Below are positions 8,189 to 32,990 of a DNA stretch of 64,000 nt, in pieces. The notes beneath the pieces are model-generated. The model was not told the origin of the DNA, searched no databases, and worked only from the letters and a program-made list of their open reading frames with translations. Origin of the DNA: a virus (taxonomy: Duplodnaviria > Caudoviricetes); IMG/VR virus record IMGVR_UViG_3300020049_016424, positions 64,001 through 128,000 of that record; one strand, written 5' to 3'. How positions within the stretch are numbered: the first letter of the stretch is position 1; each line of letters begins with the position of its first letter. The position numbers and the translations under genes are program-made.

Positions 8189-9252
8189 GCTGCCTCGCGG
8201 TGTTCTCCGAGATCGTACGGGCGCATGAAGATCGTCATGTTGCCCGCAGCCGTCGTCACCGGCCGTTCGTTACGGCCCGGCGTGATGAGCCAAAGCGTCG
8301 GCACATCGATTCGGGTGGTGGGCGCGGTGCACTCGCCGTCGGTGGCGTAGACGACCATGTCGACGCCGAAGCCTTCCTTCTGCTTCTCGACGATGTACGC
8401 GAGCGCCGGGTCGAAGTCCGTACCTCCACGGCCCTTCATGTTGAAATCGATGTCGGTCTCGGCCCTGATCTCTTGCCAAGACTGCACGGCGGCGTCTGCG
8501 TAGATCAGGTAGACCTCGAGCCCGGGGCACTTGCGCAGCAGCTGCTGCAGCTCGCTCATCGCGGCCTGCAGGTCGGCCGTGCCCATGGACCCCGAAGTGT
8601 CGACGACCCACGCGATGCGGTAGCAGAACACCTTCGTGATGCCCGGGAAGAGCGGCACACGGGAGCCGAGGTGGCGCTGCCCTCGCATCGTCAGATGCTT
8701 GGCCATGGCCGCGCGCTGGTTGCTGATGCGGGAATAGCCGCGCTGCCGCTTGGCGTCGACGTAGCGCGCCACCATGGACGCGAAGATCTCGGTCCAGTCG
8801 ACCGTCGCCGGGCGCAGGATGTTCTCGATGAGCTCCATGACGTTCGAGGGCGCGTAGCCGCGATACTTGCTGCCCATGGTCTTCGCCGCGGTCTTGAGGA
8901 CCTTCTTCGCGTGCTGCTCGAGCGCGAGCGCCTGCATCTCGAGGTCTTGCAGCTGCTTGTCGTCGTCTTCCTCCTGGGTGCCGGAGTTGCTCGGACCGGA
9001 CTCCCCCGCGAGCTTCTCGTAGAGGTGGTGCCGCAGGACCTGAACGACCTGCGACAGGAGCGTCTGTTCGACCGTCGACAGCGCCTTGACGTCGGCGTCG
9101 ATGGCTTCGCGCGAGTCGGCACCCGGGTCGAGCTTCAGCACGGCGGCGACGAGCGCTTCGGGGCTGTCGCAGTTCTCGAGATTGGCGAGCCCGAGGATCT
9201 CCATGGGGGAGGCCTGGGTATTGGCGGCGGTATCGTCTTGGATATTGCTCAT
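8185..9252 (-). CDS. vWA-domain protein (DUF2201 C-terminal type)
   Basis: VDWTEI, MIDAS VVDTSGSM, DAAVQ, GRGGTDF, YATDG. Confidence 0.85.
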   Translation of the reverse strand: MSNIQDDTAANTQASPMEILGLANLENCDSPEALVAAVLKLDPGADSREAIDADVKALSTVEQTLLSQVVQVLRHHLYEKLAGESGPSNSGTQEEDDDKQLQDLEMQALALEQHAKKVLKTAAKTMGSKYRGYAPSNVMELIENILRPATVDWTEIFASMVARYVDAKRQRGYSRISNQRAAMAKHLTMRGQRHLGSRVPLFPGITKVFCYRIAWVVDTSGSMGTADLQAAMSELQQLLRKCPGLEVYLIYADAAVQSWQEIRAETDIDFNMKGRGGTDFDPALAYIVEKQKEGFGVDMVVYATDGECTAPTTRIDVPTLWLITPGRNERPVTTAAGNMTIFMRPYDLGEHREAA

Positions 9253-9485
9253 GGAGTAGACTTTCTAGGTAGGGGAGAGGGTAGGTTCTTGTGTTCTTGT
9301 ACCGCGAGAAGTCGCTGTCTTCGGGCAGCGTATGCGGACACGGAGAAGAGCGCGTTGTCCTGTGCAGTGAGTTCTGGCGAAGGCAGAGCTTCGTACTGTG
9401 CGCCAAGAGCGGTGTTCCGTATCCGGAACGGAATACCCGAAAGGGAGCGAATGTAGCGCCAGCGCTGGACGAAGAGGTGCTTCAT
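9249..9485 (-). CDS. MKH-leader small basic protein
   Basis: MKHLFVQRW; stop overlaps the vWA start. Confidence 0.72.
   Translation of the reverse strand: MKHLFVQRWRYIRSLSGIPFRIRNTALGAQYEALPSPELTAQDNALFSVSAYAARRQRLLAVQEHKNLPSPLPRKSTP
9296..9324 (-). promoter_or_regulatory. putative phage promoter CCGAAG-N15-GGTACAAG
   Basis: Copy of the recurrent bipartite motif, upstream of the vWA gene. Confidence 0.6.
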
Positions 9486-9694
9486 CGCTGTCTCGTGTGT
9501 TTGTACGCGACTAGCCGGCCCCAGAGGTCTTGCGCGTGTCTCGCACGGTAAGCGGCGTCAAGACCTCGATCGAAGCGCCGGCTTCTAGTGCGGAGTTCTT
9601 GCACGTTCACGAAATCTCCGCATTGTCGCCGTCGATAACGATTCGTAGGGGAGAATGAGTGCGCTTCCCGGGGAGACGTGAACACGTGCTTCAT
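9482..9694 (-). CDS. MKH-leader small basic protein
   Basis: MKHVFTSPR; ATGA-coupled. Confidence 0.72.
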   Translation of the reverse strand: MKHVFTSPREAHSFSPTNRYRRRQCGDFVNVQELRTRSRRFDRGLDAAYRARHAQDLWGRLVAYKHTRQR

Positions 9695-9903
9695 TGCGAG
9701 CCCTGCTTGTGCGACTCGAGGCGTGCGAGCAGTTGCGGGCGAAACCCGCTAACGTACAGCGGGCAGCCTTGTAAGTACCGCCGCGCGCGTGTTTCTATCT
9801 CACGTGTCTCAATGATGCGGCCGCACCTGCGCGCTTTGTGCGGATAAATGGAGACCCCTCGCAGCCCGTGGTAGTGCCAGAGCATGGTGAAGGCGTGCTT
9901 CAT
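9691..9903 (-). CDS. MKH-leader small basic protein
   Basis: MKHAFTMLW; ATGA-coupled. Confidence 0.72.
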   Translation of the reverse strand: MKHAFTMLWHYHGLRGVSIYPHKARRCGRIIETREIETRARRYLQGCPLYVSGFRPQLLARLESHKQGSQ

Positions 9904-10106
9904 CGGCGCAAGGCTTGCTTGTACAGGGAGAGGCGGCACAGTAGATCGAGCTGTAGATCGATGTCCAAGGACAAGCCTTTCCGAAGTCGACGGGCCCGCG
10001 GGTAGATCTCTTGTAAGTCGGGGTTTGGCCCGCTCATCCTACGGCGATGCGGGAGGTTGCAACTTCGCAGGGAGTAGGTCCAGCTAGACGCTAGCGCGTG
10101 TTTCAC
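9900..10106 (-). CDS. MKH-leader small basic protein
   Basis: GTG start, KHALASSW; GTGA-coupled. Confidence 0.7.
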   Translation of the reverse strand: MKHALASSWTYSLRSCNLPHRRRMSGPNPDLQEIYPRARRLRKGLSLDIDLQLDLLCRLSLYKQALRR

Positions 10107-10321
10107 GTAGGCGTTCCGTATTTCGAGATCTTGTACTGTTCGAGACGCACGGTGAGCCTGCTTCGCGCAATGATTTGTAGTACGAACGCGTCCTGTGCCG
10201 TGCGTTCCCGTGACATGACCGGATCGTACTGAACGGCGCCACGATGCCCCACCAGGCGCTCGCGCCACGGGTGAGGGGCGTCCAGGGCGTATACCCATGT
10301 GGACACGAAGATGTGCTTCAT
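10103..10321 (-). CDS. MKH-leader small basic protein
   Basis: MKHIFVSTW; ATGA-coupled. Confidence 0.72.
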   Translation of the reverse strand: MKHIFVSTWVYALDAPHPWRERLVGHRGAVQYDPVMSRERTAQDAFVLQIIARSRLTVRLEQYKISKYGTPT

Positions 10322-10524
10322 GAGTTCCTCGCGCTCTTGTAGTCCTGAAGCCGCGTGCGGAGCTCTCTGCGTGCGATACGCCGGGCAATGGCCGCGTTCC
10401 GGTCTCTACGAGCTCGCGTCAAGATGTTTTCTTGCACAAGAAGCTCGGCGACGCGTCGTTCACGAGCAGGAAGCGACGTCTGCCACCCTGTGCGCCACCA
10501 GCGTGAGCAGAATACGTGTTTCAC
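10318..10524 (-). CDS. MKH-leader small basic protein
   Basis: GTG start, KHVFCSRWW; similar to 12006-12170. Confidence 0.72.
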   Translation of the reverse strand: MKHVFCSRWWRTGWQTSLPARERRVAELLVQENILTRARRDRNAAIARRIARRELRTRLQDYKSARNS

Positions 10525-10733
10525 GGTGCCGCCTTCTTGGCTAACTGCCAACGGTACAGACGGTGACATAGCGCTTGCTGCGCCGAGTAGACCTGGTGAT
10601 CCCGCGCGCGGTCGCGCTGAGCTCGCGTAGGGATCTCTTCATGCAAGGTGTGCTGGCCCTCGACTCTCCAGCGGTATGGGTCGCCGCGGAGCCAGGTTCT
10701 TCGCATCCACGCGGACGTGAGGATGTGCTTCAT
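10521..10733 (-). CDS. MKH-leader small basic protein
   Basis: MKHILTSAW; ATGA-coupled. Confidence 0.72.
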   Translation of the reverse strand: MKHILTSAWMRRTWLRGDPYRWRVEGQHTLHEEIPTRAQRDRARDHQVYSAQQALCHRLYRWQLAKKAAP

Positions 10734-10960
10734 GGGGGCTCCCGGTGTTCTCGAAGCTGGCGCCGTGCGGCCTTGAAGGTCCACGCCCGCCGTTGGAGGG
10801 CGCAGCGTAGATTGTACTGAAGCCGCGCGGCGCGGGCCTCTCGAGTTTGGAACGTGAGGATGTCGTTGAAGTCGTAGAACGCGCCCACTTGCCGTTGGCG
10901 GAATAGCAACCCGTCTTCCGTGACGTGCCGTGTCCAAGTGGTTACGAAGAGATGCTTCAT
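10730..10960 (-). CDS. MKH-leader small basic protein
   Basis: MKHLFVTTW. Confidence 0.72.
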   Translation of the reverse strand: MKHLFVTTWTRHVTEDGLLFRQRQVGAFYDFNDILTFQTREARAARLQYNLRCALQRRAWTFKAARRQLREHREPP

Positions 10961-11011
10961 GGGGACCTCGAGTTTGTGGGTACGCGGAGGACCGCCTGTG
11001 CGGGAAGCCGT

Positions 11012-11236
11012 TCACTGTCCGGTAACGATACGACGCCATCGCCGCTCTCGTTTTCGGGTCTGAGACCGGGCCTGTAGGTCTCGTCGGCCCGCCAGGGCGA
11101 GCTGGTCGTTGTTCTGGGCTCGGTGCGCCCGTGTGAGGACGTATTCGACGCGAAGCACGCCGCCTTCGGTGCGGTAGAGGAACGGCCCCAGGCTGCCGAC
11201 ACTCCGCACCCAGCGAGTCACAAAGAGATGTTTCAT
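11012..11236 (-). CDS. MKH-leader small basic protein
   Basis: MKHLFVTRW; ATGA-coupled start. Confidence 0.72.
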   Translation of the reverse strand: MKHLFVTRWVRSVGSLGPFLYRTEGGVLRVEYVLTRAHRAQNNDQLALAGRRDLQARSQTRKRERRWRRIVTGQ

Positions 11237-11454
11237 CGCAACAACCCTGTGACCCTTGCCTCCCGCCACGCTGTCTTCCGTGCACGGAGGTCACGTCGTG
11301 CGCGTGACGCCGCTATCTCCGCGTCGAACCACTTTTGCGTGCGTGTGGGCACGGTTCGATACGTCACCTGATTCGCCCCGTTGAGGCGATAGGTGTAGCG
11401 CACGCCCGTGTCTGCGTGGCCGCGCTTCCACGGCGAGACGAAGACGTGTTTCAT
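11233..11454 (-). CDS. MKH-leader small basic protein
   Basis: MKHVFVSPW; ATGA-coupled. Confidence 0.72.
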   Translation of the reverse strand: MKHVFVSPWKRGHADTGVRYTYRLNGANQVTYRTVPTRTQKWFDAEIAASRARRDLRARKTAWREARVTGLLR

Positions 11455-11597
11455 GGCGGCGTCTTCTTCTTCTTCTTCAAAAAAAGACCCATGGTGCGCC
11501 ACGCTTCAGGGTAGCTCAGGTACCGATCGTAGGTTCCTTCCCAGCGCTGCCATCCGTACAAGGACTTGCGCCAGGGCGAGACGAAGACATGCTTCAT
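11451..11597 (-). CDS. MKH-leader small basic protein
   Basis: MKHVFVSPW; 48 aa, ends LKKKKKTPP. Confidence 0.65.
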   Translation of the reverse strand: MKHVFVSPWRKSLYGWQRWEGTYDRYLSYPEAWRTMGLFLKKKKKTPP

Positions 11598-11809
11598 TTG
11601 GCGGCTGAGTACTGCGCCAGGCGCTGTTGGGCGACCGTGTCCCAGCGCGCAGAGCGAAGCGACGCACATGTCCGCGCGAGATCTTCGAGTCGCCAGGCGC
11701 GGGTAAGAACCGCTTGTGTGCAAATGTATCGCCCTTCGTGGCGCTTTCGGTGATAACGCCCTTCGCGTAGGGAGAATCGTACCCATCGAGAGGTGAAGAT
11801 GTGCTTCAT
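11594..11809 (-). CDS. MKH-leader small basic protein
   Basis: MKHIFTSRW; ATGA-coupled. Confidence 0.72.
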   Translation of the reverse strand: MKHIFTSRWVRFSLREGRYHRKRHEGRYICTQAVLTRAWRLEDLARTCASLRSARWDTVAQQRLAQYSAAK

Positions 11810-12009
11810 GTGCGGCCCCGTTTGAAGAAGACAACGCGATACGCGAGGGCTTTGCGGGCATGGCATGCGTCGCGTATAGCGAGATAGGCGCGGCCCGCAG
11901 AATCTTGAACGATGCGGCGTTCGTAGATAGCGAAACATCGTCGCGTACGACCCCGCACTGTGCTCGTGAACTGCGTGCGCGTCCAGGCCCCTACCATAAC
12001 GTGCTTCAT
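11806..12009 (-). CDS. MKH-leader small basic protein
   Basis: MKHVMVGAW; ATGA-coupled. Confidence 0.72.
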   Translation of the reverse strand: MKHVMVGAWTRTQFTSTVRGRTRRCFAIYERRIVQDSAGRAYLAIRDACHARKALAYRVVFFKRGRT

Positions 12010-12170
12010 CGACGCGCCAGTTTGTATCTTAGAAGGCGGGTGCGTAGTTGGACGCGCGCAGTCACACGCGCGTTCTCTTGCGCAAGAAGCTCGGCGAAAC
12101 GTCGTTCACGAAAAGGGAACTGCGCCCACTGCTCTGCGCGCCACTCGCGTGTGCAGAATACGTGTTTCAT
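12006..12170 (-). CDS. MKH-leader small basic protein (below ORF-track cutoff)
   Basis: Hand-translated MKHVFCTREW...RERRFAELLAQEN...LRTRLLRYK, 54 aa; ATGA at both ends. Confidence 0.72.
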   Translation of the reverse strand: MKHVFCTREWRAEQWAQFPFRERRFAELLAQENARVTARVQLRTRLLRYKLARR

Positions 12171-12361
12171 GTGCCCCTCCGTTCGTGAAGCCTGTTCAAG
12201 ATCCCACTACGGGAGCCGTACTCCCCTAGGTACTTACGCGACGCTCGCGTATCCACCCAGGTGAACTCCATGTGAATATCGATGACGTACCGGCGACGGT
12301 ATCGCCGTCCGTTCGCCACAACGTACGCGAACTCCCACAGAGATACGAATACGTGCATCAT
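12167..12361 (-). CDS. MKH-leader small basic protein
   Basis: MMHVFVSLW; ATGA-coupled. Confidence 0.72.
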   Translation of the reverse strand: MMHVFVSLWEFAYVVANGRRYRRRYVIDIHMEFTWVDTRASRKYLGEYGSRSGILNRLHERRGT

Positions 12362-12561
12362 GGACCGCGTCCCACAGCAAGGCGGTCACGCAGGTGTTCG
12401 AGGAGCACCGCCCGCGTGCTTTGTGCGTAAAACTCGCGCCCCTCTTTGTTCATGACGTGCCGCCAGGACAGGGCGAACTTCCCGGCATACCGAAGACGTA
12501 CCGTGATCTGGGCGTCGGTAATGTACTGTATCTTCCACGGCGTCACAAAGGTGTGTTTCAT
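12358..12561 (-). CDS. MKH-leader small basic protein
   Basis: MKHTFVTPW; ATGA-coupled. Confidence 0.72.
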   Translation of the reverse strand: MKHTFVTPWKIQYITDAQITVRLRYAGKFALSWRHVMNKEGREFYAQSTRAVLLEHLRDRLAVGRGP

Positions 12562-12794
12562 GATCCTCGCCTTTCCCGGCGACGCCGCTCTGCCAGAGTT
12601 CGGTAACGGATCTGCTGCTGGCGGGCCAGGCAGCCGTCGTTGAACTCACGCCCCGCGCGGTTGAGGATCCTATCGACCTCAACCCAGGTGGTGCCCCCGC
12701 GCTGGCCGGTGCCAGCCACGTGTCGCGTTCGATGGAAGACGCCGCCTTCACAGCGATTCCGAGTCTGCCACGCGCTCACAAAGACGTGTTTCAC
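12558..12794 (-). CDS. MKH-leader small basic protein
   Basis: GTG start, KHVFVSAW; NRAGRE motif. Confidence 0.72.
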   Translation of the reverse strand: MKHVFVSAWQTRNRCEGGVFHRTRHVAGTGQRGGTTWVEVDRILNRAGREFNDGCLARQQQIRYRTLAERRRRERRGS

Positions 12795-13021
12795 GGCCCT
12801 TGCCTCCGGATGGCGCGGCGCCAGTCTAGGTTTTTGTTTCGCGCGTCCTGCGCGAGCTCTTCGTTGTTTAGGTCGCGCCCCGCAAGGTCCAGCACCCGCA
12901 CGCATTCAGTGTACCTGCCCGAGAAAATATCATACCCCCAGGACACTTCTCGAATGCGGTCTCGAGTCCCTGAAGACGGGTTGAACTCTTCGCGCCAGGA
13001 CGTAGCGAGGGCGTGTTTCAC
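12791..13021 (-). CDS. MKH-leader small basic protein
   Basis: GTG start, KHALATSW; DLAGRD motif. Confidence 0.72.
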   Translation of the reverse strand: MKHALATSWREEFNPSSGTRDRIREVSWGYDIFSGRYTECVRVLDLAGRDLNNEELAQDARNKNLDWRRAIRRQGP

Positions 13022-13251
13022 AGCTCCTTATCCAGAAAGGAGTCGCGCCGCAGCAGTAACAGCAGGCGATAGTCCTGCTGCTGGTTGTGCGCGAGCCTGT
13101 CGAGAGCGTCCTTCTGCCCCGCACGATCGAGCACGTATTCCGCTTCGCGGTACCCGCGGGCCTTGTAGTGGAGCGTACGTACACGTTCTCGAAAGCCCTG
13201 TCCGCGCGGATGATCTTGAATCCGCCACGAGCTGACAAATACGTGGATCAT
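13018..13251 (-). CDS. MKH-leader small basic protein
   Basis: MIHVFVSSW; DRAGQ motif. Confidence 0.72.
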   Translation of the reverse strand: MIHVFVSSWRIQDHPRGQGFRERVRTLHYKARGYREAEYVLDRAGQKDALDRLAHNQQQDYRLLLLLRRDSFLDKEL

Positions 13252-13490
13252 GGTGGAAGTCTTTCTCTAGGGAGTTGTTGCTTTTTTCGATCAAGAAGCC
13301 GGGCCACAAGTCGCCGATGTTGGCGCCTTTCTTCTTCTCGACGAGATCGAGCACGGCCTGCGGCGTTGGGCACGATGTACATATCGTGCCAGGGCCGCCC
13401 GTCTTCTGCCCAGCACGATACGCTGCGCACGTGCTTGAAGATATCGTTGAACTGTACCCGCTCCCAAGGCTCTGTGAACACGTGCTTCAT
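13248..13490 (-). CDS. MKH-leader small basic protein
   Basis: MKHVFTEPW; NAAGR motif. Confidence 0.72.
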   Translation of the reverse strand: MKHVFTEPWERVQFNDIFKHVRSVSCWAEDGRPWHDMYIVPNAAGRARSRREEERRQHRRLVARLLDRKKQQLPRERLPP

Positions 13491-13663
13491 GGCAACCTGT
13501 GTGTTCTCCGTGCGAACGCCTGCTCGCGCAGAGCGCACCGCGCCATGTACTCTGCGCGCCGTTGGTGAAGCTCCCGCCCGGCAACATCCAGTACGCTGCG
13601 GGTGGCAGCATCATAGGCGTTTTCGGGAACGCGCACCCAACGAGTCACAAAGACGTGCTGCAT
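13487..13663 (-). CDS. MKH-leader small basic protein (below ORF-track cutoff)
   Basis: Hand-translated MQHVFVTRW...LDVAGRE, 58 aa; stop overlaps the next ATG. Confidence 0.7.
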   Translation of the reverse strand: MQHVFVTRWVRVPENAYDAATRSVLDVAGRELHQRRAEYMARCALREQAFARRTHRLP

Positions 13664-13866
13664 CGGTCCCGCACTTTTTTGAGCTGTTGGAGACGCCCCT
13701 CGCGCTCCCAGCGAATTATCTCGCGGGTATGCCGCGCGTGAATGGCGCGCCCTACGGCGTCTGTGACCACGCGATACTGGTACCTGCTATGTGCGAATCG
13801 TACCTGCCGCCGCACGCCTGTGATCTCAGAATTTCGGACCCAAGCATTTACAAACGCATGCTTCAT
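13645..13866 (-). CDS. MKH-leader small basic protein
   Basis: MKHAFVNAW; DAVGR motif. Confidence 0.72.
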   Translation of the reverse strand: MKHAFVNAWVRNSEITGVRRQVRFAHSRYQYRVVTDAVGRAIHARHTREIIRWEREGRLQQLKKVRDRCSTSL

Positions 13867-14066
13867 AGTGGCACGCCTCGTCGAGCGCGCGCGGCGCGCT
13901 GCCGCGCGTCAAGCTGCGCATCTCCGACAAGCAGAGTTTCCCACTCTCGTCCGGCCCGGTTCCGTACAAGGCGGTAGGTCAGGGTTCCATTCTCATAGCG
14001 GCGGTCGTGCTGCACATCCTGTAGGAAGGGGCAGCGGCGCCAAACAGTAGCGAACACATGTTTCAT
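13863..14066 (-). CDS. MKH-leader small basic protein
   Basis: MKHVFATVW; NRAGRE motif. Confidence 0.72.
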   Translation of the reverse strand: MKHVFATVWRRCPFLQDVQHDRRYENGTLTYRLVRNRAGREWETLLVGDAQLDARQRAARARRGVPL

Positions 14067-14278
14067 GAATACCGCTCCCATACGTAAGCCGTGTGGCGTC
14101 GTTGCAGCGCGTTGAGCAGGTCTTCGTACTCCCAGTGTCGCAACACGGCACGTCCCGCTGTAGTTCTGCGAAGACGGATGGTTCGCTGCCGCCCCTCCGT
14201 GCGCGCCTCTTGCACCAACAGGCCGTGCGGGGTGTGCGAGACCCAAGAGGCCCATGGAGACGTCAGGACATGCTTCAT
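14063..14278 (-). CDS. MKH-leader small basic protein
   Basis: MKHVLTSPW; TTAGR motif. Confidence 0.72.
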   Translation of the reverse strand: MKHVLTSPWASWVSHTPHGLLVQEARTEGRQRTIRLRRTTAGRAVLRHWEYEDLLNALQRRHTAYVWERYS

Positions 14279-14478
14279 ACGACCTCTCGTCGGTGCCGCT
14301 GCAGGCGTAGACAAAGCATGATGCGATATCGGACGGGGTCCAGGACGAGAAGCGTCTCTAAGGTTCGCCGCGGCGAGCCGCCCTGTGGGAAGAGCTCGTC
14401 CCACTCTCCTGCCTTTCGCAGGCGCGTGTCTCCGGGCGATGTAGACATAGCCCACAAGGACACGAAGACATGTTTCAT
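14275..14478 (-). CDS. MKH-leader small basic protein
   Basis: MKHVFVSLW; ATGA-coupled. Confidence 0.72.
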   Translation of the reverse strand: MKHVFVSLWAMSTSPGDTRLRKAGEWDELFPQGGSPRRTLETLLVLDPVRYRIMLCLRLQRHRREVV

Positions 14479-14759
14479 GGCGGGTCTCGCAGCAGCCACA
14501 GGGTCAGCCGTCGCTGTAGGGCCTTACGTGCATTGAAAGTATGGAGGGTGGCGGTGCTGGAGGTTCGTATTTCCACGGGCTCAGGGGCTCTCCGCATAGA
14601 AACAGAGAGTGCCTCCATATGCCAGAGTTTGCGTCCCCAGGCGTCCACGTACAGGTAACGACTTTGGAAGTAAAAGCGGCAGTGGCGGAACTCCCGGGCG
14701 AACTCGCCACTACCCACCGCCATCGCCGTCTCCCATTTCCCCATCAGCGCATGTTTCAT
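14475..14759 (-). CDS. MKH-leader small basic protein
   Basis: MKHALMGKW; DAWGR motif. Confidence 0.72.
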   Translation of the reverse strand: MKHALMGKWETAMAVGSGEFAREFRHCRFYFQSRYLYVDAWGRKLWHMEALSVSMRRAPEPVEIRTSSTATLHTFNARKALQRRLTLWLLRDPP

Positions 14760-15055
14760 GGCAGAGCCCTTTTCCGCGTGGAGCAGGCGTTGGTGTGGCG
14801 GCGAAGAAGCGCACCCTGCGCTTCTATGCGATGAATGACCATCACATCTCGGTCGCAGGCGACTCGGGACAGGGGAGTGCCCCATACCGCGCCTTGCCAA
14901 GGGAGTTCCCACCTCCAAGTAACGTCTCCTTGAGGTCCTCGAAGCAGGTGTTGCGTCTCCGTGTGCCCTTTGCGTAGCACGCGGTAGCGGCAGCTACGGG
15001 TTCCCAGGATCATATTCGGGGGAAAGGCCCAGGGCCCTACGAAGGTGTGCTTCAT
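14756..15055 (-). CDS. MKH-leader small basic protein
   Basis: MKHTFVGPW; QGDVTW motif. Confidence 0.72.
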   Translation of the reverse strand: MKHTFVGPWAFPPNMILGTRSCRYRVLRKGHTETQHLLRGPQGDVTWRWELPWQGAVWGTPLSRVACDRDVMVIHRIEAQGALLRRHTNACSTRKRALP

Positions 15056-16665: not shown

Positions 16666-16715
16666 GGGTAGTTTCCTTCGGATAGTCCGCGGGATAGATC
16701 GCGGAGGGGACCTCT

Positions 16716-16744: not shown

Positions 16745-16780
16745 GCGAAGCCCCCTGTGGAATCGCGCGGGCTTTCGGGG

Positions 16781-26244: not shown

Positions 26245-26510
26245 GGCGCCTTCCCCTTGCGCTGCTTGTACGCAAGCAAACGGCCGAACAGCGCCGAGTT
26301 CACCTGGAGAGGCTGGGTGTGCCATACGACGTCCGGCGCCCCTACCCCGTTCATCTGGATATTGATCGTGATGTAATTATGGATCTGGGCCCCTAGAGAC
26401 ATCGAAGTCTTCCTGTACCCACTCCAGTTACCCGATGTGGGCGCGTGCTTGTGCTCGATGATTCCCAAGAACGGATGCTTCCAAGGCTGCATGATAAACG
26501 CATGTTTCAT
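26241..26510 (-). CDS. MKH-leader small protein
   Basis: MKHAFIMQPW; body unlike neighbours. Confidence 0.7.
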   Translation of the reverse strand: MKHAFIMQPWKHPFLGIIEHKHAPTSGNWSGYRKTSMSLGAQIHNYITINIQMNGVGAPDVVWHTQPLQVNSALFGRLLAYKQRKGKAP

Positions 26511-26755
26511 GGTAGCTTCTTTCTGGTGCCGAGGAGGGCTCGCCATTCGCGAGCAGAGATCGAGGATTCGATGGCTAGGGCACGACGCCGCGCCGCAGCG
26601 AAGTCCCACGCCAGCTTCACGGGGGATACTTGGCGTCGCAGGGCTCCGCGAGCCAAAAAGTCTCGACGGGCAGCAATCACCTCCTGGCTTCGTACGTACA
26701 CGGCAGATTCATGCACGAAGAGGACGCTTCGCGGAAAGAGGTGTCTCATCGTCAT
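26507..26755 (-). CDS. MRHLFP-variant small basic protein
   Basis: MTMRHLFPRS; same leader variant as 27849-28097. Confidence 0.68.
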   Translation of the reverse strand: MTMRHLFPRSVLFVHESAVYVRSQEVIAARRDFLARGALRRQVSPVKLAWDFAAARRRALAIESSISAREWRALLGTRKKLP

Positions 26756-26952
26756 CTCCGAATGCGCCAGGAGATATACCGAAGGCGTAAGACGGGCTCG
26801 GCGTTATCCCGAGCTCGGAGGGTCAGGTAATACCCAGACAAGCCTTGGCGGGATGCGTAGCGATTCTCAGTGGAGAAGCGCGTGTCTCGCAATAACCGAA
26901 AACTCGACGCCGTCCCGTTCTTCCACGTCCCTTGTGTGAAGGTGTGCTTCAT
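26752..26952 (-). CDS. MKH-leader small basic protein
   Basis: MKHTFTQGTW; YASRQGLSGYY...AEP. Confidence 0.75.
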   Translation of the reverse strand: MKHTFTQGTWKNGTASSFRLLRDTRFSTENRYASRQGLSGYYLTLRARDNAEPVLRLRYISWRIRR

Positions 26953-27245
26953 CAGGGTCTCCTAGGGCGCTTGCCGAGGACGCCTTGTCGCGCAGCAGCG
27001 TGGGCTGCCGTGTCGGCATTGCGACGCAATACCCACAAGGATATGTGCTTACCGGTATGGTTCCCGTAACGTGTGTGCAGTAGGACTTCGTCTGCGGACC
27101 GCGCGGCGCTGGTCGGGTAGCTGCCTGCGCGACCCTCCCAGGACAGGTAGCGTATCCAGATACGAGGACTGTCCCGCTGGCATCGGGTTTCTTCGTAAGC
27201 CCCCTGGGGGCGAACCCACAGCCCCGTAACGAATGCATGCATCAT
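26952..27245 (-). CDS. MKH-leader small basic protein
   Basis: MMHAFVTGLW; WIRYLSWEGRAGSY; AAARQGVLG tail. Confidence 0.72.
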   Translation of the reverse strand: MMHAFVTGLWVRPQGAYEETRCQRDSPRIWIRYLSWEGRAGSYPTSAARSADEVLLHTRYGNHTGKHISLWVLRRNADTAAHAAARQGVLGKRPRRP

Positions 27246-27550
27246 ACGGGCCTCTTCCGGGCCGGCCTCTCGCCGAAGACGCCTTGTTGCGCCGCAACGT
27301 GCGCGAGACGGTCTCCCTCGCGCAGCATCCGGCTGAGCTCGGGCTCGCGCCCCGTGTACCGCCAAAACCGCAGATAGAGCGATGGTTCCGCAGCAGTGCG
27401 CGCCTCCGTGTCCACGTAAACGCCAGTTGTTGCCCCGGTGGAGGACAGGTACCGCACGGCATCGCGGGTACGTGGCGGGCGATGCTGTCGGCGTTCTACA
27501 GCAACCCCCCCGAGACGCCGCCAGGGCCCATCGTAGAAGGCATGGATCAT
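27242..27550 (-). CDS. MKH-leader small basic protein
   Basis: MIHAFYDGPW; AEPSL; AAQQGVFG tail. Confidence 0.72.
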   Translation of the reverse strand: MIHAFYDGPWRRLGGVAVERRQHRPPRTRDAVRYLSSTGATTGVYVDTEARTAAEPSLYLRFWRYTGREPELSRMLREGDRLAHVAAQQGVFGERPARKRPV

Positions 27551-27849
27551 GGTGCTCTCCGTGCGAGGGGTGGGATACCGAGTGCCCCCTCCGCGGCGGC
27601 ACGGACGGCCCTTTCGTGGGCGCGCCACTGCAAGATCGTCAGAGAGACGACGCGGTCAAACCGCTCTGCGTACCGCATGTCTAGCGAGGGCTCTGCGCGC
27701 ATCCAAGCCTCCCACGAAGAATAGCGCCCGCCTCGGCCCCACCAAGAGCGGTACCGAATCCAGCAGTAGGTGTCCCGTTGCCGCAATGCACGGATCTCCC
27801 CGGGGAGGCCTGTGGACACCCAACGCCCTTCCACGAATGCGTGGACCAT
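27547..27849 (-). CDS. MKH-leader small basic protein
   Basis: MVHAFVEGRW; WIRYRSWWGRGGRY...AEPSL. Confidence 0.72.
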   Translation of the reverse strand: MVHAFVEGRWVSTGLPGEIRALRQRDTYCWIRYRSWWGRGGRYSSWEAWMRAEPSLDMRYAERFDRVVSLTILQWRAHERAVRAAAEGALGIPPLARRAP

Positions 27850-28097
27850 CAGCGGGGCCGCCGTGCGCGGTGCGCAGGGATCACGCCGAAGAGTCGGCGC
27901 TGCTCCTCGAGAGGAAGCGTGTGAAGCGCCGCCGCCGCGGCTAGCGTGCGCTTGGTGAGGTATTGCCCGATTTCGTACAAAGGCCGGTTCAGGGCCTTGG
28001 CGTAGCGGGCCAGGCGGGCTCGGACGTGTGCCAGGTGCGCTTCTGCAAACGCCATGCGGGCGCTCGTCGGGGGCTCTCTGGGGAATAGATGTCTCAT
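27849..28097 (-). CDS. MRHLFP-variant small basic protein (first unit of array B)
   Basis: MRHLFPREP; SD GAGGAGG; downstream of a promoter copy. Confidence 0.7.
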   Translation of the reverse strand: MRHLFPREPPTSARMAFAEAHLAHVRARLARYAKALNRPLYEIGQYLTKRTLAAAAALHTLPLEEQRRLFGVIPAHRARRPR

Positions 28098-28117
28098 GCG
28101 CAATCCTCCTCTCGTGA

Positions 28118-28151
28118 TAGTCTTCTACCGTGCCTCAAGTCCATATTACGG
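28118..28151. promoter_or_regulatory. overlapping divergent promoter boxes
   Basis: Plus TAGTCT 28118-28123, 6 nt before terminase GTG, overlaps minus GGTAGAAG 28122-28129 (upstream CCGTAA at 16-nt spacing). Confidence 0.5.
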
Positions 28152-29770
28152 GCTCCCAGTGGGTCCAATCCCATATCTACCTTGGAGGCAAGCCGTTTTC
28201 CCTCGACGACTTCCCGTTCTACACGGACATCTACGATCAGGTGCATCAGGCGATGGTTCTGATGACCTGTCGACAGGTCGCCAAGTCGACGACGATCACG
28301 AATCTCATCACGCAGAACTCGTGCTTGCGGCCGCACTGGCGCAGTCTGTTTGTGGCGCCCACGCAGGAGCAGACAGCGCGTTTCAGCCAGACCCGTCTCA
28401 GCAAGGCACTGCATCTCAGCCCGCGCTTGCAGGGGCGCTGGGTGACGCCCGATCTCTCGAGCCGTGTTTTCCTCAAGATGTTCAAGAACGGCTCCGAAGT
28501 GGCGCTCTCGTACGCCTCTGACGACCCGGACCGTATCCGCGGCATCTCAGCCGACGAGGTTTTCTACGATGAGGTGCAGGACATCGTCTACGACGAGGTC
28601 ATCCCGGTCGTCAACGAGGTGCTCTCACAGAGCGACTACAAGTTCGAGCGCTACTGCGGCACCCCCAAGACGATGGAGGCGTCGCTCGAGAAGCTCTGGC
28701 AGTGGAGCACGCAGACCGAGTGGATGATCCGGTGCCCCGGTTGCAGCAAGTTCTCCGCCCTCATCGACGACAAGTGCATTGGCAAGAACGGCCCGATCTG
28801 TGTCGCGTGCGGCGCCTACCTCGACGTCCGGGCCGGCATCTGGATCGATCACCAGGCCTATGGCCCGAGCCACCAAGGCAAGCAGCTCAAGGGCTACCAC
28901 ATCAGCCAGATGATGCTGCCGAAGAACGTGCCGATCTCGATGCCGGGGGACTCGCGGAGCCAGGAGCTCGCGCAGCGACGTTGGAAGAGCCTCCTCGACA
29001 AGTACGTGACGTACCCGCCGAGCAAGTTCAAGAACGAGGTCATCGGCCGCAGTGACTCGAAGGGCGCGCGGCTGCTCACGCGAGAAGAGCTCGAGGCCTT
29101 CTGCACCGACCGTGTGATCTCGGAGTACCCAGACCCCGGGCACACGTACGACTACCTCGTGGCAGGCGTCGACTGGTCTGGAGGCGGCGGTGAAGGTAAC
29201 TCGCTCACGGCGCTTTGGATCTGGGGCGTACGGCGCGCGGGCGGGCTGCACCGCATCGTCCTCGACACCGTGTACTCCAAGATCTACTCCGAGAACAACC
29301 CCATCTCCGGACAGATCATCGAGGACATCATCACCAAACTGACACACTTCAACGTTGACCTGGTGATTGGTGACGCCGGCGGGGGCGCCCTCGCCAACGA
29401 CTACCTGCAGGAGGCGTTGGGCAGGAACAAGGCTCGGCAGGTGCAGTACCGCCAGACCGCGAATGCCAGCGCCGGACGCCCTCCGTTCTACTGGAACAAG
29501 CTCGACCGGTACATGGCCGAGAAGACGACCATGATCGACCATTTCTTCGTTTACGTGAAGAACGGGGGCGTGCGGTACGCGAACGTGCCGCAGATGAGCG
29601 AAGCGTTCTCGCACATGCTTTCGGTCTACGAGGACCAGTCGAACAACGGGCAAAAGATCTGGAAGCGTACCACTGGCGAGCCCGACGACGCGCTGCACGC
29701 TCAGGTGTTCGGATGGATCGCGGCGAACGTAATCGTGGGTAACGGGATGTTCACCGAGGAGATCGGCTAG
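28130..29770 (+). CDS. terL: terminase large subunit (with Zn ribbon)
   Basis: Walker A-like CRQVAKST, DRIRGISAD, Walker B FYDEVQD, GTPKT, CPGC/CVAC ribbon, nuclease AGVDW...DAGG...PDDALHA. Confidence 0.85.
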   Translation: MPQVHITGSQWVQSHIYLGGKPFSLDDFPFYTDIYDQVHQAMVLMTCRQVAKSTTITNLITQNSCLRPHWRSLFVAPTQEQTARFSQTRLSKALHLSPRLQGRWVTPDLSSRVFLKMFKNGSEVALSYASDDPDRIRGISADEVFYDEVQDIVYDEVIPVVNEVLSQSDYKFERYCGTPKTMEASLEKLWQWSTQTEWMIRCPGCSKFSALIDDKCIGKNGPICVACGAYLDVRAGIWIDHQAYGPSHQGKQLKGYHISQMMLPKNVPISMPGDSRSQELAQRRWKSLLDKYVTYPPSKFKNEVIGRSDSKGARLLTREELEAFCTDRVISEYPDPGHTYDYLVAGVDWSGGGGEGNSLTALWIWGVRRAGGLHRIVLDTVYSKIYSENNPISGQIIEDIITKLTHFNVDLVIGDAGGGALANDYLQEALGRNKARQVQYRQTANASAGRPPFYWNKLDRYMAEKTTMIDHFFVYVKNGGVRYANVPQMSEAFSHMLSVYEDQSNNGQKIWKRTTGEPDDALHAQVFGWIAANVIVGNGMFTEEIG

Positions 29771-30391: not shown

Positions 30392-30424
30392 TTACCTCCT
30401 AGGGTCTTTGAAGACGTGCTTCAT
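30392..30424 (-). pseudogene. truncated MKH unit (MKHVFKDPRR*)
   Basis: 10 codons; its AGGAGG doubles as the SD of the HNH gene. Confidence 0.6.
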
Positions 30425-30454
30425 GCGCGCCGAGCCCGCAGTACAGGGCATCCC

Positions 30455-30781
30455 TTAGGCACTTCGCGGGCACCAGGCATGGCGTGCCTCCCGGAGCTCG
30501 TCGCGGCGCTCAGACACCACCTCCAACAGTTCACCACCAAACACTGCGCCGGAGTACGGCACACCGGCGGATGCAAACGCTGTTGGGCGCAGAAAACGGC
30601 CGGAGGTAGTGCTCGGACTCTGCGCAAACTCCGCGTGCTCTATCGCGAGATCAAGGCAGGTGCGTCCGAACGTGTCGTATACCCAGCCCCGAGTTTCGAC
30701 GTAGTCCGTGTGGAGCACAGAACGAAGCTGGACATGGGGCGACGTACTGATCCGCCATGCAGTTACGAAAGCGTGCTTCAT
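30455..30781 (-). CDS. MKH-leader small basic protein
   Basis: MKHAFVTAW; WVYDTFGR. Confidence 0.75.
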   Translation of the reverse strand: MKHAFVTAWRISTSPHVQLRSVLHTDYVETRGWVYDTFGRTCLDLAIEHAEFAQSPSTTSGRFLRPTAFASAGVPYSGAVFGGELLEVVSERRDELREARHAWCPRSA

Positions 30782-30784
30782 TTT

Positions 30785-31093
30785 CTAGCCTCGCTCTTTT
30801 CGGTGGGCCAAGCGCCAGTGCACAGGAAAGACCCGCTTGCCTCCAAAGCAAGTCCCATGGATCTCAGGAGCGGCCAGGGAGTACGCGGAAGCGCTGGGCT
30901 TGTGTCGTCCCCGAGAGATCCACCGCAGGGGCGTGCCCAAGAGGCAGTTGTAGCGCGTGTGCAGTTCCGGACGGCCATGTACATCCCATTGCCACTCTCG
31001 GAGCTCTACGCGCCCATTACGCAGCCCCATGAGGCGCAGCTCCCCGGTGGAGGTTTTCACACGGCGCCAGGGGCCTATAAAGACATGCTTCAT
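30785..31093 (-). CDS. MKH-leader small basic protein
   Basis: MKHVFIGPW; WQWDVHGR. Confidence 0.75.
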   Translation of the reverse strand: MKHVFIGPWRRVKTSTGELRLMGLRNGRVELREWQWDVHGRPELHTRYNCLLGTPLRWISRGRHKPSASAYSLAAPEIHGTCFGGKRVFPVHWRLAHRKERG

Positions 31094-31416
31094 CGGACCG
31101 GTTGCGGTAGCGCTGCGCGCCGGCGTTGCAACTTCTCCCTAGGTGTCTGGTGCCCTACGCCGTCGAACTCCAGCCCTGGAGGGGCACTTCTGTGCGCGAA
31201 TGCGGCGGGCCGTATTGCGTGCCCTGCGAGCCGTGCCCGCGTGTGGGCCGTCACGTACTGGCCTAAACGAAGGGAGGCTCGTCCGAACTCGTCGTACCCC
31301 CAGTACCGCGTTTCCGCGACACCTGCGTGCTTGCGACCCGGGGGTGTGTTGCAGAGTCGATTCTCTGTATGCGTGAGCAGCCCCCGCCCCCAAGCCTGTA
31401 CAAATGCGTGTTTCAT
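31090..31416 (-). CDS. MKH-leader small basic protein
   Basis: MKHAFVQAW; WGYDEFGR. Confidence 0.75.
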   Translation of the reverse strand: MKHAFVQAWGRGLLTHTENRLCNTPPGRKHAGVAETRYWGYDEFGRASLRLGQYVTAHTRARLAGHAIRPAAFAHRSAPPGLEFDGVGHQTPREKLQRRRAALPQPVR

Positions 31417-31736
31417 GGAGAGTCCTCCTTGAAGGCCGCGCGGCGCAGAAGCTGCGTTGTCTTGGGTGGCGTGCAGGATATTCCGCCAAAGTCCATCCCG
31501 TATTTAGGCACCCCGGGTTTTGCGTAACTGGCTTTGCGCTTCGCGCGCCCAGGGCTGGAAAACGCGCATCCCGTGAAAAGCCAGTGGGTGATCAGTTCGG
31601 CCCGCCCAAAGACATCCCACTCCCAGTACCGTACTTCACCAAGAGGAGGGTTGACGGACCCCCTTCCAAGTAACACTCGGATCTCGTCGGCGGGGCTGGC
31701 GCCGCGCCGCCACGGCCCCACGAAGGCGTGTTTCAC
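31413..31736 (-). CDS. MKH-leader small basic protein
   Basis: GTG start, KHAFVGPW; WEWDVFGR. Confidence 0.75.
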   Translation of the reverse strand: MKHAFVGPWRRGASPADEIRVLLGRGSVNPPLGEVRYWEWDVFGRAELITHWLFTGCAFSSPGRAKRKASYAKPGVPKYGMDFGGISCTPPKTTQLLRRAAFKEDSP

Positions 31737-32038
31737 TTCTCACCTCGCCGGAGTTTGTGGCTGCTGAGCCGCACAGTAAGCGGCGGAAGATAGCAATGTC
31801 CAAAGATGGACCCTGCGGGGGACGGACCACTTGCAGTATAGGATGAGCCGGGACGGGTCGGCACCGCAGGGCCCCCGGTGTGTCGCACGGAAGTTTCTTC
31901 AAAACGGAGCTGTTGACGTCCGAACATATCAAAGCACCATATTCGGGATTCTCGCCGTGCGTGCGTGTGCACAAAAAACCGCTCTTGTTCTACGCTCAAG
32001 TGCGTGGCACGCCACGGCCCCACAAAGGCGTGCTTCAT
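31733..32038 (-). CDS. MKH-leader small basic protein
   Basis: MKHAFVGPW; WCFDMFGR. Confidence 0.75.
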   Translation of the reverse strand: MKHAFVGPWRATHLSVEQERFFVHTHARRESRIWCFDMFGRQQLRFEETSVRHTGGPAVPTRPGSSYTASGPSPAGSIFGHCYLPPLTVRLSSHKLRRGEK

Positions 32039-32352
32039 GGTCGGGCCATGGCGTAGGCGCGCAGACGTTCGTGGATGTCCGGGCAGCGAACTCCCCCGAA
32101 CCACCGCGTAACACGCATCCCTGCGGCACTGAACGTGTAACGCGGGCGTCCGCGCCGACGCAACAAGCCTCCAGGTAACAGGGTTGTCCGCGTCTTGTCT
32201 CGCGAGGCTACAAGTGTGTTCAAACTGACGCATGCCCGGCCAAACTCATCGTATTCCCATTCTCGGACCTCAAGTAGCCCATGCGAGAGGAGGCGCACGT
32301 CTTCGTGTGGGTATGTGCTGCCCTGCCAAGGCCCGACAAATGCATGTTTCAT
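32035..32352 (-). CDS. MKH-leader small basic protein
   Basis: MKHAFVGPW; SD AAGGAGG; WEYDEFGR. Confidence 0.75.
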   Translation of the reverse strand: MKHAFVGPWQGSTYPHEDVRLLSHGLLEVREWEYDEFGRACVSLNTLVASRDKTRTTLLPGGLLRRRGRPRYTFSAAGMRVTRWFGGVRCPDIHERLRAYAMARP

Positions 32353-32367
32353 GGTCGATGCCTCCTT

Positions 32368-32685
32368 TCAGCCCGGCCGCAACCGATGGCGCCTAGCCCG
32401 CGCAGGCACCGATCGACAAAACACCCCGTTGAAGACGATCAGCTCCTCACCATAGACACCTGCCTGCGCAAAAGCAGGGAGAGCCTTCAAGCCGCCTGGA
32501 AGGCTGAAAGACGTCGAGGCTGCGCGCAAGCCGTCGTAGGGCATGATGACCCGCGTTCCACGCCCAAACGCGTCGTAGGCCCGGCAACGCGATTCCGTCC
32601 AGTGGTTGTGGGTTTGCCGGTACTGCCAATGCCCGTGCGGGTACACAACACACTGCCACGGTGTGCGCAAGAATATGTGCTTCAT
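32368..32685 (-). CDS. MKH-leader small basic protein
   Basis: MKHIFLRTPW; AYDAFGR. Confidence 0.75.
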   Translation of the reverse strand: MKHIFLRTPWQCVVYPHGHWQYRQTHNHWTESRCRAYDAFGRGTRVIMPYDGLRAASTSFSLPGGLKALPAFAQAGVYGEELIVFNGVFCRSVPARARRHRLRPG

Positions 32686-32990
32686 GGCGCTTTTTCCTGT
32701 GCACGGATGCGGCGTGTGAGACGCGCTGCTGGCCCTTGGTTCAGTTCGTCGCCAAACCACACTACCAGGGGCCACCGGATGCCGGCGTCAGCGTACGCGG
32801 GCGCGTATTCGAGGGGGCCCGAAGTGCCGACGCTTTTACGCAAAATCCCGCGACGTATTGGGGCTACGCAACTACGTCCGAATTCGTCATATGCAATGAT
32901 CCGGCCCTCCCACCATCCGGAAGAGGTCTGGCGAAACTGCCCGTTCTTCAGCGCGCTCAGTCGCCACGCTCCAACACTTGTGTGCTTCAT
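32682..32990 (-). CDS. MKH-leader small basic protein
   Basis: MKHTSVGAW; SD AAGGAGG; AYDEFGR. Confidence 0.75.
   Translation of the reverse strand: MKHTSVGAWRLSALKNGQFRQTSSGWWEGRIIAYDEFGRSCVAPIRRGILRKSVGTSGPLEYAPAYADAGIRWPLVVWFGDELNQGPAARLTRRIRAQEKAP

Follow-up and report, generated by a model that had tools for sequence, protein, structure and literature searches.

Tandem arrays of very small, basic genes with a common N-terminal motif in a jumbo phage

What are the 83 tiny, very basic, back-to-back genes that make up ~12% of this genome (~22 kb of a 182,833-bp contig), and what might they do for the phage, an uncultured jumbo phage encoding its own RNA polymerase? We addressed this question in a 64-kb window, the whole stretch of DNA analyzed, and on the remainder of the contig. 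An earlier note had counted 73 chained units in three arrays and likened their leader to the capsid-targeting peptide of T4 internal proteins.

Array layout and coding evidence

On the window's minus strand, 72 units or remnants bear the leader M-[K/M/I]-H-x-F-x3-4-W, and a further 14 lie outside the window on the same contig. A scan of the window for NTG-(AAR/ATG/ATH)-CAY starts returned 72 on the minus strand versus 4 on the plus strand. Array 1 (9249..15934, minus strand) contains 30 family-A units of 48-100 aa with a median pI of 11.1, and is joined through NTGA overlaps to the flanking genes at both ends. Array 2 (20357..27849, minus strand) has 33 members of family B, counting remnants and an MVH unit at 27547-27849, and falls into sub-families B1 (20357-21830), B2 (21827-23698) and B3 (23718-27849), all on the minus strand; some of its units bear a C-terminal '...QGVFxxP' helix extension. 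Array 3 (30392..32990, minus strand) comprises eight family-C units of 101-108 aa and a 10-aa remnant at 30392-30424. The earlier note credited array 2 with a 34th unit, but this 84-aa ORF at its head (27849..28103, minus strand) lacks the leader and has no significant similarity to the units (BLASTP E 0.09).

Coding density in the arrays is 97-101%, and across the whole contig 66 junctions are 4-nt NTGA stop/start overlaps, with three more overlapping by 1 nt. The units are 48-130 aa long with a pI of about 10-11 (above 9 in 80/82 units), and their median net charge is +5 to +11.5.

Across the 83 units, M1 and H3 are invariant (83/83 each), position 2 is K, M or I in 81 (K 65, M 11, I 5, Q 1, V 1), and W occurs at position 9-11 in 80, in keeping with the leader as first described. 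Phenylalanine occupies position 5 in 65/83 units, and this residue is hydrophobic in 82/83. Thr and Ser are absent from position 2, although the NTGA overlap permits their codons. Information content along the leader codons (2.0, 1.18, 0.65 / 2.0, 2.0, 1.18 / 0.82, 1.02, 0.15 / 0.98, 1.5, 0.43 bits) is 3-periodic, with wobble positions free to vary, which bears out the earlier claim that synonymous codon variation reflects selection on the peptide. Among nine orthologue pairs between strains there are no frameshifts and no stops, and M, H, F and W are unchanged throughout. Tandem-leader DNA patterns matched 3-4 times in the window versus 0 in 100 dinucleotide shuffles. A purine-rich stretch lies at -6 to -12 before unit starts. 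GC by codon position in the units is 0.64/0.49/0.68, with GC3 at 0.66-0.69 compared to 0.75-0.92 in neighboring genes.

Could the arrays be an RNA or DNA repeat, with open frames as a by-product of high G+C? Codon bias is weak, and by our own estimate random sequence of 62% G+C is often open for 70 codons (about 0.13 per frame). However, the 3-periodic conservation, the exact stop/start overlap at 66 junctions, the retention of amino-acid motifs through synonymous change and the high confidence of AlphaFold2 (AF2) models all argue against a non-coding origin, and neither Rfam nor tRNA scanning of the window produced a match. We consider this explanation hardly credible. Given the 3-periodic leader, the AF2 confidence and the lack of broken frames between strains, the units are very probably real proteins.

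Four paralogous families and their predicted structure

The unit bodies form four sequence families, A, B, C and D, and body HMMs recover every member of their own family. Within each sub-array the bodies are clear paralogues, with 25-45% identity and conserved motifs. For 34/83 units the closest paralogue is a direct neighbor, versus 12 expected (at most 22 in any of 1000 draws). Strains also differ by gain and loss of units: the 8-codon remnant MMHPKELP in array 2 (23695..23721, minus strand) marks the place where three whole units, retained by strains L001 and L002, have been deleted. These data show that the units, at least 83 in number, belong to one lineage-specific multigene family that grew by tandem duplication. 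They run counter to the earlier picture of unrelated payloads whose bodies diverge freely.

Searches for relatives of this family came back empty. Pfam on 10 units gave nothing above the curated cut-off and PADLOC on 3 units gave no match, with no nuclease or transposase motif in either set, and when 1.84 billion representatives were searched exhaustively, the units turned up in this phage and its strains only. The earlier note recognized no named family with this organization; these searches support that view, and the organization is undescribed as far as they reach.

Profile-profile comparison aligned an N-terminal module over residues 1-31 (B-C), 1-36 (C-D) and 1-23 (B-D), and family A has just the first 12-17 residues in common with the others. 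In AF2 models built from paralogue-only alignments, the array-1 unit at 11233-11454 (pLDDT 92.5) is predicted to form three strands and a long helix; the model of the array-2 unit at 27242-27550 has a pLDDT of 85. Over residues 1-10 both models have fair confidence (pLDDT 85 in A, 71 in B) and the same pattern, a bridge at residue 6 and then a strand. Of the roles suggested earlier for the leader, the best fit is that it forms the first strand of a small variable fold; between B, C and D the profile-profile alignments widen the common part to 23-36 residues. In the models, the leader is part of the fold.

Fold searches with the unit models revealed no relative in the PDB; the small folds considered were β-propeller blades, COMM domains and chromo-like folds. 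Best superposition (VIA) Z scores were 3.7 (model A) and 3.5 (model B), which is noise level for such searches, and best Foldseek E values were 0.31 and 3.1 against the PDB and 0.12 against BFVD. Residues 1-47 of family B can be placed on single β-propeller blades (Z 3.5, rmsd 2.1-2.9 Å over 40-43 residues, noise level), and family A weakly matches COMM domains (Z 3.6, rmsd 8.7 Å over 64 residues, likewise noise level). Taken at face value, such matches would suit a stoichiometric assembly, in which chaining yields near-equimolar small basic subunits that coat nucleic acid or form a propeller-blade- or COMM-like hetero-oligomer, and NTGA chaining with a basic composition is reminiscent of r-proteins. 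However, these structural scores are at noise level, and the loss of three units between strains, together with dN/dS values near 1, is a poor fit for obligate subunits, making this a very improbable account.

RiPP precursor arrays (e.g. prochlorosins), which pair a long conserved leader with a short hypervariable core and have modifying enzymes nearby, were also considered and rejected: only about 10-35 residues are conserved in the units, modelled within a folded domain of 70-100 aa, and no RiPP enzyme family was found among the neighboring genes.

Genomic context and an array-free relative

A relative (L004), located through its large terminase (TerL identity 55%), has the same backbone but no arrays, and the leader motif is absent from its 32.7 kb. 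In L004, MoxR abuts TerL, and orf202 adjoins PolA with no array in between. A single 666-aa DUF2201 peptidase-VWA gene of L004 corresponds to two ORFs that flank array 1 in this phage. The N-terminal half (15931..16794, minus strand), zincin-like with an HExxH motif and Pfam DUF2201_N at positions 43-135, aligns with residues 36-225 of the L004 protein, and its stop overlaps the start codon of the first array-1 unit. The C-terminal half (8185..9252, minus strand), containing the end of DUF2201_N and the VWA-like DUF2201 domain (Pfam), aligns with residues 358-664 (E 2e-49), and its ATG shares nucleotides with the stop codon of the final array-1 unit. The DUF2201-ORF249-RT module is kept in L004. 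Judged from these sequence comparisons, the arrays are a lineage-specific insertion into replication, MoxR-VWA and RT operons.

Replication, MoxR and RT genes share a strand with all of the arrays, which are directly coupled to these genes. Array 1 is part of the chain DUF2201_N - array 1 - VWA - ORF192 - RT, which ends in a retron-clade reverse transcriptase (6672..7715, minus strand). Array 2 lies directly upstream of, and in the same direction as, the gene for a MoxR-type AAA+ ATPase (AAA_5; 19019..20281, minus strand). Array 3 begins 12 nt downstream of the gene for a UDG-exonuclease-PolA fusion polymerase (33002..36349, minus strand), in a shared operon, and array D adjoins a DUF927 primase-helicase-like gene. 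Large terminase (TerL; 28130..29770, plus strand), a backbone marker between arrays 2 and 3, and the RNAP genes are on the opposite strand.

The RT raised the question of whether the units are targets of a diversity-generating retroelement (DGR), which would call for a DGR-clade RT, a template/variable repeat pair and adenine-specific substitutions. This idea was rejected: the RT matches retron-clade models best, and strain differences in A units are mostly transitions (43/60) with no A-specific bias.

Genomic context also bears on the T4 analogy, according to which the leader would be a capsid-targeting or packaging tag and the basic library would be carried in the head and injected with the DNA, perhaps after cleavage behind the ExR Glu in B, C and D. 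T4 internal proteins (IPI, IPII, IPIII and polymorphic relatives) likewise combine a short common N-terminal peptide with small, basic, strain-variable proteins, and their locus is hyperplastic, with gene gain and loss as here. An invariant short N-terminus on diversified small basic proteins would suit such cargo, as would the [E/Q/D]xR motif found 15-30 residues from the start in 60/83 units. However, family A mostly has RxR at this motif in place of a Glu site. In T4, the tag is cut off at a terminal Leu/Ile-x-Glu protease site, whereas the units have no uniform cleavage site, a leader MKHxFxxxW with no Glu in the first 12 residues, and AF2 models that place this leader within the fold. T4 has a handful of internal-protein genes, situated among head genes; here there are 83, dissimilar in sequence to those of T4 and to its tag, in replication-type operons coupled to PolA, MoxR, DUF2201, RT and DUF927, on the strand opposite terminase, RNAP and the presumed head genes. 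No prohead protease was recognized in the phage. Context thus lends the T4 analogy no support, and virion cargo seems unlikely.

A different role for the leader is suggested by the genes around arrays 1 and 2. MoxR-VWA pairs are metal-cofactor insertion chaperones, and K, M, I or Q at residue 2, found in 82/83 units, blocks Met removal. Met-x-His could represent an ATCUN-type Cu(II)/Ni(II) site, or else a docking or processing tag, served by the MoxR AAA+/VWA/zincin module, given that array 1 is embedded in the peptidase-VWA gene and array 2 immediately precedes MoxR. His is third in 83/83 units, across families whose bodies cannot be aligned. One caveat is that bacterial cytoplasm contains little free Cu(II). 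An ATCUN site requires that the amino terminus be free and that His be the third residue, with a residue other than Pro at position 2 (PMC13398410). In sequence, the units conform to the His3 and residue-2 parts of this rule, and their basic, aromatic-rich context resembles that of several metal-binding host-defence peptides (PMC13398410). Unlike ATCUN peptides, though, the units are cytoplasmic, begin with Met and would need deformylation, and F5 and W9 fall outside the motif and are left unexplained by a metal. Moreover, arrays 3 and D lie elsewhere, adjoining PolA and the DUF927 gene, and L004 retains a MoxR-DUF2201-RT module without units, indicating that the module has another job. On balance, a metal site or client tag is doubtful.

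Selection, turnover and a proposed role

Estimates of dN/dS for the units range from 0.24 to 1.5. The value is 1.05 for A units and 0.43 for B2 units (omega 0.24-0.68 in some), compared to 0.24 for flanking genes that belong to the same divergent patch. Low GC3 and a family-A dN/dS of about 1 are also expected of decaying or selfish sequence, and near-neutral cassettes would be one way to read the arrays: ATGA-bounded units supply a stop to the upstream gene and a start to the downstream gene, and could insert and multiply in operons, or even within a gene, at little cost, so that the arrays would persist while benefiting the phage little. The gene that array 1 interrupts, at its linker, is still expressible as two ORFs, whole-unit deletions and remnants exist, and a relative does without arrays. 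Yet M, H, F and W are strictly kept while wobble positions are free, some B2 units are under purifying selection, the folds are confident and covariation-based, and the units lack a nuclease or transposase motif. In addition, 22 kb is a heavy burden for a genome limited by head size. Selfish spread strikes us as an improbable explanation.

The explanation we favor, at a probability of roughly 0.45 and hence short of even odds, is that the arrays are a tandemly expanding repertoire of basic effectors with rapid turnover, acting in host takeover or counter-defence, built on a common N-terminal module. The label 'effector' is suggested by the evolutionary pattern and the context. Among known anti-defence proteins, acidic ones are commoner than basic ones, which counts against it. 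Through the NTGA overlaps, each cistron would be translated by termination-reinitiation, and this would allow long runs of units to be made from one transcript. The module, Met-(Lys/Met/Ile)-His-x-Phe-x3-4-Trp with (E)xR motifs behind it in B, C and D, would be the nucleus of the fold, with the invariant His3 as a putative common functional site. The remainder of each protein would have diverged into the four families, with surfaces varying from unit to unit. Gene order suggests that the units are early- or middle-expressed, and they may bind nucleic acids or acidic host surfaces. Single units would be dispensable, and the set would be remodelled by duplication, deletion and relaxed or diversifying selection.

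Precedents exist for parts of this scheme. Host-takeover modules, such as those of Bacillus phage SPO1 and the pre-early regions of T4 and T5, are rich in small ORFan genes that sit in early or middle operons, are each dispensable and for the most part lack an assigned function. In contrast to the units, those takeover genes are not paralogous, have no common N-terminus and are not uniformly basic. African swine fever virus MGF100/110/360/505 and poxvirus 'gene accordions' are tandemly duplicated paralogues with isolate-variable copy number, rapid evolution and a presumed role in host interaction. Here, in contrast, the genome is that of a head-limited phage, and the array genes are micro-ORFs (50-130 codons) linked to one another through stop/start overlaps. 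A single invariant N-terminal motif is retained across four families whose bodies cannot be aligned, and one array splits a conserved gene. The arrays look like a fast-evolving protein repertoire, of a kind that has not been described for phages.

Composition of the arrays and relatedness of the units

A scan of the window for NTG-(AAR/ATG/ATH)-CAY starts returned 72 hits on the minus strand versus 4 on the plus strand. The units, micro-ORFs that begin with the leader M-[K/M/I]-H-x-F-x3-4-W, are organized in three minus-strand arrays: array 1 (9249–15934) with 30 units, array 2 (20357–27849) with 33 units or remnants, and array 3 (30392–32990) with 9 units or remnants. This tally of 72 takes in an MVH unit (27547–27849) and three short remnants. 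An earlier note, made from the sequence only, had counted 73 units; the three arrays and the shared leader are confirmed, but the 73rd ORF (27849–28103) lacks the leader and has no demonstrable relation to the units. A fourth array of 14 units lies outside the window, at genome positions 168969–175132. In total, 83 full units occupy ∼22 kb, or ∼12% of the genome.

Units cover 97–101% of the array DNA. They are chained by overlapping stop and start codons, with 4-nt NTGA overlaps at 66 junctions and a TGA stop in 75 of 82 units. Met1 and His3 are invariant among the 83 units. In 81 of them the second residue is K, M or I; residues of this type should retain Met, and 82 units carry such a residue. 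Position 5 is Phe in 65 units and hydrophobic in 82, and a Trp occurs at position 9–11 in 80. The units are uniformly basic, with a pI above 9 in 80 of 82 and a median net charge of +5 to +11.5.

To compare the bodies, we removed the first 12 residues and built HMMs for families A (array 1), B (array 2, sub-families B1, B2 and B3), C (array 3) and D (the fourth array). Each HMM recovers all members of its own family, and cross-detection occurs among B1, B2 and B3 only. The hhalign results agree, and neither method links the bodies of A, B, C and D. Alignments of full-length profiles extend over residues 1–31 for B and C, 1–36 for C and D, and 1–23 for B and D, taking in one or two (E)xR motifs, while family A aligns to the others over only 12–17 residues. 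According to these data, what was called the leader is the opening stretch of a shared N-terminal module. This differs from one picture raised in the earlier note, a tag carried by unrelated payloads in analogy with T4 capsid targeting. We also asked whether a frameshift could turn one family into another, and rejected this, as no family HMM matches any alternative or antisense frame.

The nearest paralogue of a unit is its immediate neighbor in 34 of 83 cases, compared to 12 expected for random choice within families (maximum of 22 in 1000 draws). Hence, the arrays grew by tandem duplication. The youngest duplication seen involves a truncated unit of 48 aa (11451–11597), which is 82% identical in its aligned part to the neighboring unit 11233–11454. 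This truncated unit ends in a Lys run encoded by AAG repeats and differs between strains by a 6-nt in-frame indel. A subset of family-B units (B2 and some B3; 22009–23698 and 26952–27849 in the window, 901–1514 in strain L002) carries an extra C-terminal helix ending in (Q)GVF(x)xP, which suggests module shuffling between sub-families.

Coding potential and selection

Several lines of evidence bear on whether the units are genes. The leader shows 3-periodic information content, with first and second codon positions fixed and the wobble position nearly free (e.g. 0.15 bits at codon 4 and 0.01 bits at codon 6). The synonymous variation noticed earlier does, therefore, point to selection on the peptide. 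A purine-rich stretch precedes each unit start. Within sub-arrays, the bodies are 25–45% identical and retain conserved Arg, Trp, Tyr and Gly positions. Given alignments of paralogues only, AlphaFold2 modeled family-A unit 11233–11454 with a pLDDT of 92.5 (strands 10–13, 19–25 and 29–35; helix 38–69) and family-B unit 27242–27550 with a pLDDT of 85; confident models from such alignments indicate structural covariation. Between strains, nine orthologous unit pairs differ at 100 codons and by one in-frame deletion, with no frameshifts, no stops and no changes of the leader M, H, F or W.

Two observations count against coding. GC3 is 0.66–0.69 in the units versus 0.75–0.92 in neighboring genes, and dN/dS between strains is 1.05 for six family-A units. 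For three B2 units dN/dS is 0.43 (range 0.24–0.68), and the value is 0.24 in flanking genes of the same divergent patch. We consider it very improbable that the units are non-coding repeats, and conclude, based on codon-level conservation and predicted structure, that they are most likely translated, fast-evolving genes.

Genomic setting and variation between strains

The window covers bases 64,001–128,000 of a single 182,833-bp contig of a jumbo phage. G+C content across the window is 0.59–0.68, with the arrays at the low end of this range. Encoded on the contig are a gpA-type large terminase, a PD-(D/E)XK nuclease, a MoxR-type AAA+ ATPase, DUF2201 peptidase/VWA pieces, a reverse transcriptase (RT), helicases and a multisubunit RNA polymerase. 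One ORF of 1115 aa (33002–36349) fuses a uracil-DNA-glycosylase-superfamily domain, a 3′-5′ exonuclease and a family-A DNA polymerase (PolA). Scans for sigma-70 promoters and terminators gave nothing above shuffled controls.

The closest distinct relative, an IMG/VR contig (L004) of 32.7 kb and 18% CheckV completeness, has a TerL identity of 55%. It carries the same backbone without arrays, with MoxR abutting the terminase gene and a 202-aa ORF abutting PolA, and the leader motif is absent throughout this contig. The relative also encodes the UDG-exonuclease-PolA fusion, in a 1030-aa form. The 202-aa ORF corresponds in position to a 211-aa ORF of the window (29751–30386), situated between the terminase gene and array 3, whose sole match is a faint one to a PADLOC homing-endonuclease model (E 0.007). 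Both phages share a module of a MoxR AAA+ ATPase, a DUF2201 zincin-VWA protein, a 192/249-aa ORF and a retron-clade RT (window 6672–9252 and 15931–20281; L004 1230–5187 and 8616–9899).

In the relative, DUF2201_N and VWA form one protein of 666 aa. Residues 36–225 of this protein align to the ORF at 15931–16794 and residues 358–664 to that at 8185–9252. Thus, array 1 interrupts a gene that the relative has intact. The upstream half ends at the TGA within the ATGA of the first array-1 unit, and the ATG of the downstream half overlaps the stop of the last, so that DUF2201_N, 30 units, VWA, ORF192 and RT form one coupled chain. A complex prediction for a family-A unit with both halves scored 0.00 and gives no verdict either way. 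The RT is a phage-encoded, retron-like enzyme; its start overlaps the preceding ORF, leaving no obvious space for msr/msd. Diversification by a DGR mechanism was rejected, as the RT is of the retron clade and the substitution spectrum is ordinary.

Near-identical strains are present in several Logan assemblies, and runs containing the phage include SRR13208909, SRR25018386, SRR20000429 and ERR14064714. In one strain (L001/L002), three additional units lie exactly where the window has an 8-codon remnant, MMHPKELP (23695–23721), which marks a whole-unit deletion. Further remnants lie at 30392–30424 and 20581–20679. Divergence between the window and another strain (L017) is concentrated in a ∼3-kb patch (7600–10524, dS ∼0.05) spanning ORF192, the VWA half and units 1–6; elsewhere the two are 99–100% identical. 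This patch looks like recombination from a more distant strain. The units are, then, real paralogous genes, gained and lost between strains and inserted into a conserved backbone.

Possible functions and significance

No family for the units was found in Pfam, PADLOC or NCBIfam, and Rfam and tRNA scans gave no matches in the window. The B3 and A profiles were run in word-indexed searches against 5.8 billion proteins and found only this phage and its near-identical Logan strains. Across 1.84 billion cluster representatives, searched exhaustively with HMMs, there were 25 matches, all from this lineage. The tandem-leader DNA pattern returned only low-GC chance matches and no other carrier in IMG/VR; in JGI metagenomes its matches were limited to this phage and a single unrelated bacterial repeat. 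One chance match, on a bacterial contig (JAESFX010000050.1, 1133–1416), lies in a 155-bp direct repeat encoding identical 42-aa antisense ORFs and is unrelated to the arrays. The impression that no named family applies was therefore correct, and the search for carriers of the leader elsewhere led only to this phage lineage.

Fold searches with the two models (Foldseek against PDB and BFVD, VIA wide, ESM Atlas) likewise produced no match that stood out from background. Foldseek E values were at best 0.31 (family A) and 3.1 (family B) against PDB and 0.12 against BFVD, and VIA Z scores reached 3.7 for family A and 3.5 for family B. Atlas searches, including a feature search with a C unit, yielded no usable match. 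Residues 1–47 of family B superpose weakly on a single propeller blade, and family A weakly resembles COMM or chromo-like domains of three strands plus a helix.

Host-engaged genes are usually marked by a combination of features that the units show: they are confined to one lineage, vary in copy number, are individually dispensable and evolve under relaxed or diversifying selection. On this basis, we favor, at a probability of roughly 0.45, the view that the units are a host-takeover or counter-defence effector repertoire, predicted to bind nucleic acids or acidic surfaces. Probably transcribed with replication-type operons, and so early or mid infection, they would act as a diversified set of binders.

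Other roles for the leader can be envisaged. It might target virion cargo, although the operon context gives no support and a uniform cleavage site is lacking, making this unlikely; neither Pfam nor PHROGs picked out a head protease or a capsid family in the window. Equally unlikely, in our view, is that the units are clients of the surrounding MoxR/VWA/zincin module or provide a metal site tied to it. In form, the Met-x-His start does match an ATCUN site, defined by a free amino terminus and a His in third position (PMC13398410). We regard this likeness in sequence as a lead.

Because head size limits the phage genome, devoting ∼12% of it to one orphan superfamily argues for strong selection or an unusually successful selfish cassette. 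That the units are selfish ATGA-bounded cassettes seems to us improbable, and a role in stoichiometric assembly more so. A more elaborate version of the effector reading is doubtful but worth stating. The MxH...F...W N-terminus would be a purpose-built functional head, which might bind a metal or ligand or might dock all units onto a single shared machine of phage or host. The ∼83 bodies would be a combinatorial effector library, quickly renewable and deployed from a few polycistronic messages. As self-contained ATGA-bounded cassettes, the units would be able to colonize operons and to interrupt genes that survive the interruption.

A similar evolutionary mode is seen in large eukaryotic viruses, with their multigene families, and in T-even phages, with their hyperplastic internal-protein loci. 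Literature searches found no description of such arrays, and no counterpart is known to 83 micro-ORFs chained by stop/start overlaps, to an invariant Met-x-His...Phe...Trp head on families with unalignable bodies, to these folds without structural relative, or to the splitting of a conserved gene. As far as these searches go, the organization is undescribed, as first suspected. Tandem duplication with turnover is a known evolutionary mode; no precedent is known for the proteins, their chaining and their shared head.

The arrays offer 83 natural variants of a mini-fold that is confidently predicted and lacks a structural relative, displaying an invariant N-terminal Met-x-His motif. They are also a clear instance in which an array embedded in an operon has divided a conserved gene into two halves that are translationally coupled. 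Should the leader prove to be a tag or metal site, it would be a new portable module. Should the units act as effectors in counter-defence or host takeover, phages would have an equivalent of the multigene families that large eukaryotic viruses carry, one rich in new inhibitors. The functional-head and cassette version, if true, would define a new class of diversified protein repertoire in phages and a new mode of gene-cassette spread.
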